This document shows positions 7,101 through 10,100 of a DNA stretch of 64,000 bases, one piece after another (the first letter of the stretch is position 1; each line of letters opens with the position of its first letter). The position numbers and the translations under genes were made by a program. The DNA is from Torpedo marmorata (lineage: Eukaryota), in assembly GCA_977017645.1 (NCBI GenBank), contig OZ360234.1, forward strand, positions 20,274,001-20,338,000, read 5' to 3'. The notes under the pieces were generated by a model. The model saw only the letters and a program-made list of their open reading frames with translations. It did not search any database and was not told the DNA's origin.

Positions 7101-10100
7101 AGATTGCCAGATGATACCAGCTGAGGAAATGCACCACACATTCTTAAAAGATGTCTTGCATAATTACTAATTTCTCTCTTAGAAGATAGAGCAAGCTTCA
7201 ACTCTTACAATTTGGTTCAATACTCTAAAGATGTCCCTAACCCTCACCTGAGAGGTAACTTGATGTTGATCAAAATGTGAAAGATGCTGAAATTTAGCAA
7301 ATATATCCTCAGCTGTAGGAAATGCTTCTGGTTTATTTTTCTTTCGCTTTTGTCCTTCCTCGCCACCTATACAAAGAACAAAGTCGACTGTTGCTTTCCA
7401 CAGACATCCTCTAAAGCATACATGATAATGAAATAAGAGACAAGTATAGGTTGTACATTCCCAAGAGCCAATTCTGCAAAACAAAGGCTATACTTCTACA
7501 CCACTTTTTCACCCTATCCCTCAAATCCGAGTGGCAAGGTTTCTATCTCAGTAATGAATAAACACAAAAAAAAACACATTCACTACTATCTGGAGAGAAA
7601 ATTTCAATAACAAATTTCCCGATAAAGAAAAATTAATGTCTTAAAAGATTGAGCCCTTATTGTGAGTCTCTGCCAGTGTCTCATGTTCTGCAGCTTCCCA
7701 GCATTGACTTTATTAATCCCACTCAGTCTCAAAAGTCTCAATGAAATAATCTCTAATCCTTCACTACATTCTTCATGGAACAACGCCATCCCAGCTGCCA
7801 TTCCATTAACCAATCCTGTGAATTGACTCTGCCTTGACCCCAGGCCAAGAATATCTTTCTATAGATACCAAGACCAAAATTGCATTCAATATGACCCAAT
7901 AATTGTAGAAGGATAATGTATTTCAATTGCCTAGCATTTAGACCAGTGGTTCCCAAACTTTTTCAGGCGGCCGCCCCCTTGGCTCCCAGGCCACATCCCT
8001 AGCGCCACCCCGCTCCCCCACCACCACACATACAACGAACACACACCTCTTTCTTGGTATGAGGTCTACTGTAAATTTAAAATAACAACTATTGTGTCTC
8101 GCCCTTGTAACTTGTAGATAGATACACATCACCTTTTTCATTGGTGTGCCGTGCCAGATTGTCGCGATACGGGTGGTAGGTACTGATTGTATGAACCCAC
8201 GAATTAACATCGGTAATGTGTTGCAAACTTGTATCAGAACATTACTGGTTTGCATGCGGGTGTATGTGTGTCTCCTATTACGTATTGGTGTCGTGTGTAA
8301 ATAAAGTTCACCGTTTCGTACTGACACGTAGCGAGCAGGGGCGTAGCCAGGTTTTAACGTTAGGGGGAGCGAGAGCACATAAAAAAGCGCCACGACCACA
8401 GCTGTTCGCGTGCGCGCGCACACGTTTTGCAACCAGTGCGCGCGCGCACACACGCTCTCACTTACACACATGCTCTCACTCAAACACACACACTCACTCA
8501 AACACACACAACCACACACCCACCCACCCACCAAGCACGCCTACACATGCCCAAATGTCACGAGAAAATTACAATCTTTCTGCACTAAAACACCAAAAGA
8601 CATAACGTGGCTCGTTTAGTCTTGATTACAGTAAATCTTCAGCTATCGTATTTCAGCTGACCACCGAATCCAGTACATGCCTTGACTGCATACACCTTAT
8701 TCTCGGGGTGTTTTTTCTGAGCAAGGTACACTTTACCGAATGCCCCAGGGCTGATGGATTTGATAATAACGAAGTCCTCGACGCTGGGGGCTGCCGGCAC
8801 CTTGATTGCCTTCACATTCCTGTACGGGACGGCAGGACTAGCGTCATCGGTGCTGGGAACCTCCATCTCCCAATCGGATTCCACAGACCATTCCCCACCG
8901 TTCCAATGGAACACGGGACGCCCTCCGATTGAACGCTGGCTCGCAGCTCGCCGCGTGGCTGCTCTTCAAAATGTTTTCAAAAGTTCCGCTGAGGGCTGTG
9001 GGCGCTGCCGGGCTGAAAAGGTGCCACTTTTTAAAAATTTGCTCAGGGGGAGCTATTGCTCCCCCTGCTCCCCACCACCCACCCCCCCCCACCACCACCA
9101 GCTACGCCCCTGGTAGCAAGGATTGTCACTATTTGAACCCTTCAAACTTGTTTTCCTACCACAGATTGGCGCTACGAGAATGGTTCAAGGAAAAACAACC
9201 GGGCAATTGGGTGGGAGCGATGTTATGGCAAAAGGCTAAAATGAAGGGCCCCACGTGTACAGGGGACAGAGTATCGTGGTCGATCAAAGATACTAGTGGG
9301 TTCGGCAGTCTGGCCAGCATGCTGGAGGAGCATCGCAAGCCGATGGAATGGTCAGATAGCGTGGACTTGTAAGGGGAGGTGATTGGCCACCATCTTGTGT
9401 ACTCCTCAAATAATCAGAGTTCACGGGATGTAAGGGGAGCTATAGAGGGATCTTTTGGCTGCTGACAGTCTTCCTGCGGCACGGACATGAAGCCTTGCGA
9501 CGAAAGGAACACGAGTTCACCCAGTTAAAATTTGAGGTGTACAGGCTGCTGCAGCGTTGCTCCCCGATGGGGAAACCTGGGCCAGAGAGAATAAAGGCAC
9601 GCAGCTAGCGTGCAGGCTGGTCAATGTACGGTAGTTTGAGCTGTGGCCAAATGGCTGCTCCAGATCTGGGACGCGGTTGGTACCGGCGTGAGTGTACCCC
9701 ATCGTAAGCAGGTATCTCGGTGGGTTATCCAGTCAGGAAGCCATGAACAATGGCCTGTGGATGCCATCTGAGGCCATTGAGTGTAACACATCCCTGTGGG
9801 TCCGGGAAGAAGCTGCTGTCCGGATGACGGGCCCCTCCTTGCTGCAGTGGGATTTACAGTCGCGGGCAGAGCCAGAGTGGCGTACGGTAGAGGATGTGAT
9901 TAGGGCCCTTAGTGACTGGGCTCTAGTTACTGGACTATATGAGGGCACCCACGGCCGTGAGTCCCCTGAGGGCTCCGGATTAGCGCCGCAGTGGCGGGAC
10001 ACCTGGTTACCACCGACCTTCCCTATCTGAAGGGGATTGTGCTGTCTTTAATCTGTCCAGCGGGGTTGGTAAGATAGCGAGGGAGAGTGCTGGAAGGGCT

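Follow-up and report, generated by a model that had tools for sequence, protein, structure and literature searches.

The locus and its nested elements

The window, meaning the whole stretch of 64,000 nucleotides from Torpedo marmorata that was analysed, harbors two hAT elements, one inside the other, within an intron of a MED12-family gene (Table 1). One flanking exon is assigned by its match to human MED12, and the exon on the other side is likely of the MED12 family, as judged by likeness. In a preliminary description, made from the sequence alone, a MED12 intron had been proposed. Here, the family and the minus strand are borne out, while MED12 and MED12L are not separated.

The ends of the inner element are 12-bp TIRs without mismatch (CAGGGGCGTAGC; 8336-8347 and 9101-9112), and its minus strand carries an open frame of 62 codons, from the ATG at 8866 to YAVK at 8681, both as described before; 13 further codons lead to a stop at 8639. 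The 8-bp TSD and the short TIRs are those of the hAT superfamily, and the two TIRs of one element enclose between 100 and 5000 bp of non-TE DNA, as in the elements termed Pack-TIRs. Some of the earlier measurements have to be revised. The 8-bp TSD is present, but it agrees in 7/8 positions and did not arise here, since other copies have the 8-mer as well. The insert is real, and the cargo amounts to 466 bp (8529-8994) and not about 430 bp; the non-coding DNA behind the kinase part is 152 bp of intron and not about 120 bp. Furthermore, the 777-bp element is not the unit that inserted into the intron, as had been thought: this unit is the outer, Charlie-like hAT at 7944-10690.

A second copy with the same ends, at 5219-5855, had been regarded as the element minus its insert. 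Only about 115 bp on the left and about 90 bp on the right are in common with the inner hAT, whereas the interior is unrelated and of similar size. The parent before the capture of MASTL is not this copy but, by the likelier order of events, a Pack-hAT with RAB20 cargo at another locus (see below). The 5219-5855 copy is itself nested in another element (window 4900-6411), whose inverted ends are 27 bp long (TACAGTACAACTCC...), so that the host gene contains two nested pairs.

Table 1. Positions of the host exons, elements and captured segments in the window.
Feature	Position	Strand	Remarks
Sibling of inner hAT family, separate insertion	5219..5855	+	different interior, TSD 7/8
Likely MED12-family exon, other side of host intron	7248..7312	-	splice-bounded open frame, by eye
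Outer left TSD ATTTAGAC	7936..7943	+	identical to 10691-10698
Outer non-autonomous Charlie-like hAT	7944..10690	+	left TIR CAGTGGTTCCCAAAC, right TIR imperfect
Inner hAT left TSD GTAGCGAG	8328..8335	+	identical 8-mer and flanks in nested copies
Inner Pack-hAT, trimmed form	8336..9112	+	777 bp, perfect 12-bp TIRs; non-autonomous
CA-rich simple repeat in inner hAT	8441..8528	.	RAB20 3' UTR remnant gone here
Captured start of MASTL intron 1	8529..8680	-	donor GCATGT here, GCAAGT in native gene
Captured MASTL coding exon 1	8681..8866	-	62 codons; R40P of the nested lineage in Gly-rich loop
Captured MASTL upstream DNA	8867..8994	-	128 bp; two TTTGAA hexamers, two inverted CCAAT boxes
hAT right arm and TIR	8995..9112	+	common to the 5219-5855 sister and other family members
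Inner hAT right TSD GTAGCAAG	9113..9120	+	agrees 7/8 with left TSD
Outer element interior	9121..10500	.	origin not assigned
Outer right TSD ATTTAGAC	10691..10698	+	identical to left TSD
MED12-family exon, one side of host intron	12950..13084	-	E 5.7e-20 to human MED12

The MASTL cargo and its native donor

The best solved-structure match of the captured frame is Greatwall/MASTL (E 2.2e-8). On protein level, three of 14 candidates passed, and all three are shark Greatwall proteins with 69-73% identity. Both results agree with the MASTL identity proposed earlier; a Pfam search with the 75-amino acid frame gave no family above the cut-off. The native gene is located on contig C5, where its exons 2-4 have been found. 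Positions 8529-8994 of the window align to C5:74269573-74270036 with 89% identity, gaps included, 14.4 kb upstream of exon 2. As anticipated in the preliminary description, this match covers upstream DNA, exon 1 and intron 1, and it is the best host source of the cargo. Whether the native donor is GT or GC had been left to be checked: intron 1 (G000:C5:74269715) is a GC-AG intron of 14.4 kb, with exon 1 ending in AAG/GCAAGT and exon 2 beginning with AG/GTTGTCAAG (VVK).

Spliced exon 2 and poly-A, by which a retrocopy would be recognized, were both sought in the cargo and neither was found. Since upstream DNA, exon and intron are present and exon 2 is missing, the MASTL piece is, as judged from its sequence, a DNA-level capture and not a retrocopy, in line with the initial proposal. 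For the RAB20 cargo, too, intron DNA lies inside the cargo and poly-A is lacking. The parent loci of MASTL (C5:74269573-74270342), RAB20 (C31) and TLR5 (C25) are not flanked by the carrier element in the stretches examined, as in Pack-TIRs. Within 40 kb around MASTL exons 1-4, no end of the inner family was detected except for a 39-bp match to a small element 11 kb off. This small element, with CANTGTTCCCTCTAA-type ends, is located 11 kb upstream of MASTL (G000:C5:74281178-74281523), and the left arm of the inner hAT family incorporates the left part of this element as well.

The two TTTGAA hexamers of the upstream piece (8965-8970 and 8976-8981) are of the CHR type, for which a consensus and a list of DREAM-CHR targets including human MASTL are given in the accessible part of the literature (PMC4705690). 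The CHR and CCAAT elements captured here may be regarded as candidates by sequence. Both hexamers are kept in 53 of the 61 nested copies aligned, and the GCAAGT donor in 57 of 61. The window copy has the orientation of its host gene and is one of two nested copies among the 61 with the donor changed to GCATGT; the loss of this cryptic donor (8675-8680) could have been selected, in what is a single case (n = 1). A 14-bp stretch present in all copies and absent from native MASTL was first read as derived. It now serves as a marker only, its polarity not being fixed.

The inner hAT family and its other cargos

The left end of the inner family has 233 exact matches in the genome. Of 30 such loci examined, 15 carry MASTL, four transposase remnants, two a kringle piece and one TLR5, and eight are other or unresolved. 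The transposase behind the same left end is present as broken frames, which contain Dimer_Tnp_hAT (PF05699, E 8.8e-14) and DUF4371, the latter below the cut-off. The family thus includes members with a hAT transposase, as read from these broken frames; no intact transposase was found.

The TLR5 cargo is a 568-bp LRR piece with 93% identity to an 854-amino acid TLR5 frame on contig C25 and lies within one long frame. In the 3 kb examined at this donor (L252, G000:C25:112038441-112039008) no family TIR is present. The cargo is multicopy, and two of the elements have 8/8 TSDs. Carriers are for example L249, L256 and L257; dozens of copies exist, some with frames open over 170-350 amino acids, which could be mis-annotated as TLR5 paralogues.

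Another cargo consists of a signal-peptide and kringle exon (PF00051, E 2.8e-10; the best 40 of 125 candidates were scored), carried by L215 and L223/L251 (G000:C1:33211513; C1:244079959-244080509). Several of the kringle candidates are located on small contigs and close to contig ends, where their coverage is partial and identical. The donor of this cargo was not located. A match to the kringle of neurotrypsin (E 4.6e-14) is not the highest-ranking one and does not suffice to name the gene. In L233/L248 (G000:C2:101370456 onward), a GC-rich CCAAT stretch ending in ATG resembles a captured promoter with 5' UTR. Two more interiors are shared, by L216/L238/L241 and by L236/L239/L240, with no origin assigned; in L216 the C-terminus of a different, second hAT transposase is found in addition.

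RAB20 capture and the long MASTL forms

A search with the DNA left of the MASTL cargo revealed elements with the same hAT ends and no MASTL. They carry about 1.1 kb of RAB20 DNA, comprising the intron tail, exon 2 and 3' UTR, and the TSDs of three such elements agree in 8/8, 8/8 and 6/8 positions. A single intact source exists, two exons on contig C31 with exon 1 lying 11.7 kb upstream, and sawfish, devil ray and stingray rank highest among its named protein matches. No family TIR was detected in 63.5 kb at this locus. The left RAB20 junction lies inside the last transposase codons and has no microhomology. For a 50-amino acid Rab piece from a decayed copy, no solved-structure match was obtained.

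In the long MASTL forms, the cargo corresponds to C5:74269573-74270342, 770 bp in total with 441 bp of upstream DNA, exon 1 and 143 bp of intron, and its ends are fixed in most long forms (48 candidates). It sits antisense within the 3' UTR part of RAB20, with RAB20 DNA on both sides. The RAB20-only elements read GTG-TTC-GAG at this site, the double form GTG-TTC-[MASTL]-TTC-GAG, and the MASTL donor has TTC at the left end. The long forms furthermore retain the RAB20 intron piece, last codons and UTR, as well as the last transposase codons. Both element ends were found in 19 of 29 long-form loci, with TSDs agreeing in 8/8 (12 loci), 7/8 (two), 6/8 (two) or poorly (three). All 19 TSDs are distinct, as expected of a multicopy Pack-TIR that has transposed repeatedly; a 22-nt pattern of the right junction matched only six long forms. 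The trimmed free forms stop near -135 and continue into a GC-rich right arm common to the TLR5-carrying subfamily. The RAB20 3' UTR remnant is kept in 42 of 51 loci picked by a marker (see below) and is absent from the window copy.

Pairwise divergence separates the RAB20-only elements (0.067; n = 4, including one MASTL form with a deletion) poorly from the MASTL forms (0.059; n = 19). The 464-bp cargo gave a star-like tree with some long forms among the nested ones; it does not resolve the order of the subfamilies, which rests on indels.

Nesting and copy number

Homology between nested copies begins near 7944 and stops near 10687-10690, at the ends of the outer element. The outer TIR is CAGTGGTTCCCAAA; a TIR of CAGTGRTTCCCAAA and an 8-bp TSD of NTCTAGAN type are those of Charlie-like hATs. 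Among 48 left 8-mers, 44 are distinct, and their profile is near NTCTAGAN, with T4 in 43, A5 in 47 and A7 in 39. Sixteen of 40 long stretches contain the outer element with both ends; its TSD agrees in 8/8 in 10 of these 16 and is distinct in 15. Empty outer sites, with a single 8-mer and no inner hAT, have 125 exact matches, and all 20 examined are the outer element. By contrast to the inner TSDs of the free copies, which differ as had been predicted for dispersed copies, the inner TSD is shared among the nested ones.

With the cargo as query, the best 40 of 523 candidates were scored, with 95-96% identity. The 30 loci with the highest scores, to which the window copy belongs, comprise 26 that share both inner flanks and four that share one side. 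A 23-nt marker that is not in native MASTL has 304 exact matches, so at least 304 copies exist. Reversed patterns, used as controls, gave 0 matches, as compared to 304 for the marker, 125 for the empty sites and 233 for the left end. Of the 304 marker loci, 51 were examined: 41 are nested, one of which (L074) is rearranged, and 10 are free. Since the exact marker is present in 40 of 56 copies that were not picked by it, the total would be about 430 or more. This suggests roughly 400-500 copies of the MASTL piece, about 80% of them nested. Some copies on small contigs (L003/L005, L193-L195) resemble recent duplicates. In contigs from runs labelled as other organisms (B, C), the cargo is spanned together with its left junction, and the empty outer site is present as well. 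Relatives thus likely possess the family too, although the organism labels are in code and run X1 may be the source sample.

Of 61 nested copies, 58 have every one of five diagnostic changes, and the long forms mostly have the native state at these positions. This indicates that the long forms are ancestral and the nested ones derived. One shared inner site together with distinct outer TSDs indicates that the inner element entered the outer one once and that the composite then spread. As read from these sites, the inner TSD is inherited from a single founding insertion in the outer element and was not made in the MED12 intron. The outer element has therefore likely multiplied the MASTL piece as a passenger.

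The six frames of the outer interior gave no Pfam family above the cut-off. For one interior frame there was no usable Atlas match, none of 99 candidates matched, and only one near-identical unnamed protein was found. At 8040-8335 and 9121-10500, an AATAAA and a primer-site-like stretch are visible by eye next to decayed frames with no named match. A reading as LTR or as primer site, likewise made by eye, was unconfirmed and has been dropped. The interior may itself be captured cargo.

Decay of the captured frame

From the several hundred copies, 92 that cover at least 430 bp of the cargo were aligned. The N/S test, with a context-matched neutral null, comprised 61 nested copies and 23 long forms; eight aligned copies of other or trimmed form lie outside it. 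The nested copies have 198 N and 111 S changes, with 202 N expected (P 0.31), and the long forms 99 N and 51 S, with 101 N expected (P 0.37). An open 62-codon frame remains in 40 of the 61 nested copies and in 12 of the 23 long forms. Outside CpG sites, divergence is 1.8% in the coding, 2.0% in the upstream and 1.3% in the intron part, so coding and upstream DNA do not evolve more slowly than the intron. CpG sites decay by 9-15%, which is 5-7 times faster than other sites and would be expected of methylated DNA. No selection such as would mark a functional new gene, for example Ssk-FB4, was found on the MASTL frame, which decays neutrally. With a rate of 7e-10, as given for the epaulette shark (PMC10587355, as far as accessible), the cargo divergence (1.7-2.0% non-CpG, measured from the column majority) would correspond to about 25-30 million generations. 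This value spans a tenfold interval, lacks a calibration in rays and is not used.

Order of events and alternative explanations

From the elements described above, the following course emerges. The interior of a transposase-coding hAT was replaced by about 1.1 kb of RAB20 DNA, with the left junction in the last transposase codons. Filling of the gap in an internally broken element would fit a junction at this position. Then 770 bp of MASTL, which now lie in the 3' UTR part of RAB20 with TTC at both ends, likely entered. Here, RAB20 first is the simpler order because the RAB20-only elements keep stretches that are lost in the MASTL forms. The long forms lie dispersed with distinct 8-bp TSDs, and there are trimmed forms in which the upstream part of MASTL is replaced by the right arm of the TLR5-carrying subfamily, presumably by exchange between siblings. 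One further-trimmed copy came to lie at one fixed site of the Charlie-like element. The composite, which has distinct outer TSDs, was presumably mobilised in trans by a transposase not located so far. Finally, the frame has decayed neutrally. Gap repair is the likely mechanism, as judged from the junction sequences, which have no more than 3 bp (TTC) at the MASTL piece and no microhomology on the left of RAB20. Taken as a whole, a non-autonomous hAT into whose RAB20-carrying form MASTL likely came by gap repair, and which likely spread in a second hAT as a passenger with no selection, is in our opinion highly probable.

The order of the two captures might be reversed, with an element carrying both RAB20 and MASTL at the beginning and the RAB20-only elements derived from it by deletion between the TTC repeats. 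These repeats, present at both ends of the MASTL piece, would allow such a loss, and the MASTL site of the RAB20-only elements contains 8 nt which are missing from native RAB20 and could be the footprint of a lost insert. Other stretches of the copies are, however, absent from the native donors as well, and the native gene may thus have lost the 8 nt. Furthermore, the RAB20-only elements retain exon 2 and a 23-nt UTR stretch lost from the MASTL forms examined, and none of the six non-native exon 2 matches has MASTL at that site, which makes the reversed order rather unlikely. A copying of RNA has even less in its favor. A retrotransposed fragment of a MASTL transcript could have inserted into the hAT, the 3-bp repeat being readable as a very short TSD, and unspliced RNA could in principle be copied. 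Since the piece extends for 441 bp on the upstream side of the ATG and 143 bp into the intron but has neither exon 2 nor poly-A, we give this origin next to no credence.

RAB20 DNA on both sides of the MASTL piece also speaks against a transduction by bypass of hAT ends beside MASTL and against segmental duplication of larger blocks. Long flanks common to many copies, and the duplicate-like copies on small contigs, are what such events would leave behind. Yet the common flanks end at the outer TIRs with their own TSDs, and the ends needed for a transduction are missing in 40 kb around MASTL exons 1-4, apart from the 39-bp match, and in 63.5 kb at RAB20, so that this explanation is largely refuted and very improbable. 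A different question is whether the dispersed copies were put to use, be it as a short peptide, a decoy, a cell-cycle promoter with CHR and CCAAT elements or a source of small RNA acting on MASTL. The open frames, the GC donors and the paired hexamers kept in most nested copies (40, 57 and 53 of 61), together with the listing of human MASTL among the DREAM-CHR targets, would be in line with such an exaptation. On the contrary, N/S matches mutation alone, coding and upstream parts diverge no less than the intron, the CpG sites decay as methylated DNA would, and the founder of the nested copies already has R40P in the Gly-rich loop. Exaptation is accordingly judged improbable, and the serial capture of RAB20 and MASTL followed by neutral spread within the second hAT remains the preferred explanation.

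Comparison with known systems

The capture of host DNA by such elements had initially been called rarely described in vertebrates, a statement that needs amending. In its accessible sections, the survey of Tan et al. (2021) reports 370 Pack-TIRs in 100 animals, 208 of them hATs (PMC8277862). Only four families (1.4%) are multicopy there, with examples of three and five copies, and the elephant shark has none (PMC8277862). A word search of the available supplements found neither MASTL nor RAB20 (PMC8277862). Like these elements, including Pack-hAT-N8_XT from Xenopus tropicalis, the ray family has hAT ends around intron-containing host DNA, a parent copy free of TE ends on a different chromosome, short microhomology, and distinct TSDs of its multicopy members (PMC8277862). 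In contrast to them, it has several multicopy cargos, one of them with two genes in series and at least 304 copies, most of which are inside a second hAT (PMC8277862). The survey, according to the part at hand, demanded a unique top match with at least 90% identity and a length ratio of 80-120% (PMC8277862). For the MASTL cargo, the top matches are other copies with 95-96% identity, and the parent has 89% with gaps. A filter for unique top matches would therefore likely miss such a family; it is a filter for detection and not a biological criterion.

Pack-MULEs of plants often join fragments from several loci. As far as described in the sections available, the ray family resembles the Pack-MULEs of rice in being a TIR family with many gene-fragment cargos, multicopy members and a preference for GC-rich donors (here with a donor CpG o/e of 1.05, 1.01 and 0.82, as compared to 0.41 for the window), but it is hAT and not Mutator, with an 8-bp TSD and a 12-bp TIR, and its host is a vertebrate (PMC5861414, PMC8277862). 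The bat Helitron HelibatN3 carries the promoter, exon 1 and part of intron 1 of NUBPL in about 1,000 copies, according to the accessible text (PMC4224331). Thus, a vertebrate element with a promoter-exon 1-intron 1 piece at high copy number and sequential capture is common to both, whereas Helitrons are rolling-circle elements without TIRs and TSDs and the carriers here are cut-and-paste hATs (PMC4224331). The outer element resembles the Charlie-related hAT-HT3_AC of Anolis, as far as the latter is covered in the source, by its TIR (CAGTGGTTCCCAAA) and a TSD near NTCTAGAN, and may descend from that group (PMC3014272).

In the literature searched, no published report of the inner hAT family was found; repeat databases lie outside this search, and a catalogue entry may exist. 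What is new here is a plant-style, multi-gene, high-copy and nested form of a known kind of animal Pack-TIR. Unusual are the copy number, the serial capture and the nesting, while Pack capture in vertebrates itself is already known.

Significance

Animal Pack-TIRs are almost all single-copy in the broad survey, as far as accessible (PMC8277862), and the ray family represents the opposite regime in a vertebrate. All intermediates are found in the genome, namely the transposase element, the RAB20-only element, the form with RAB20 and MASTL, the trimmed form, the empty outer element and the composite. Therefore, the gap-filling model and the claim of rarity are directly testable. For annotation this is a warning, since hundreds of false fragments of MASTL, TLR5 and kringle genes are to be expected.

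Nesting provides a route by which captured exons switch their vehicle and multiply. As a tentative idea, which we hold to be possible without leaning toward it, the family may work as a Pack-hAT factory: one family would repeatedly capture CpG-island and coding DNA of many genes, shuffle it between subfamilies, stack two genes in one element and, through nesting, multiply into the hundreds. On this view, large vertebrate genomes would commonly contain high-copy Pack-TIRs, hidden by masking and by filters for unique matches, and some of the CHR/CCAAT modules of MASTL could act as cell-cycle promoters or as sources of small RNA.
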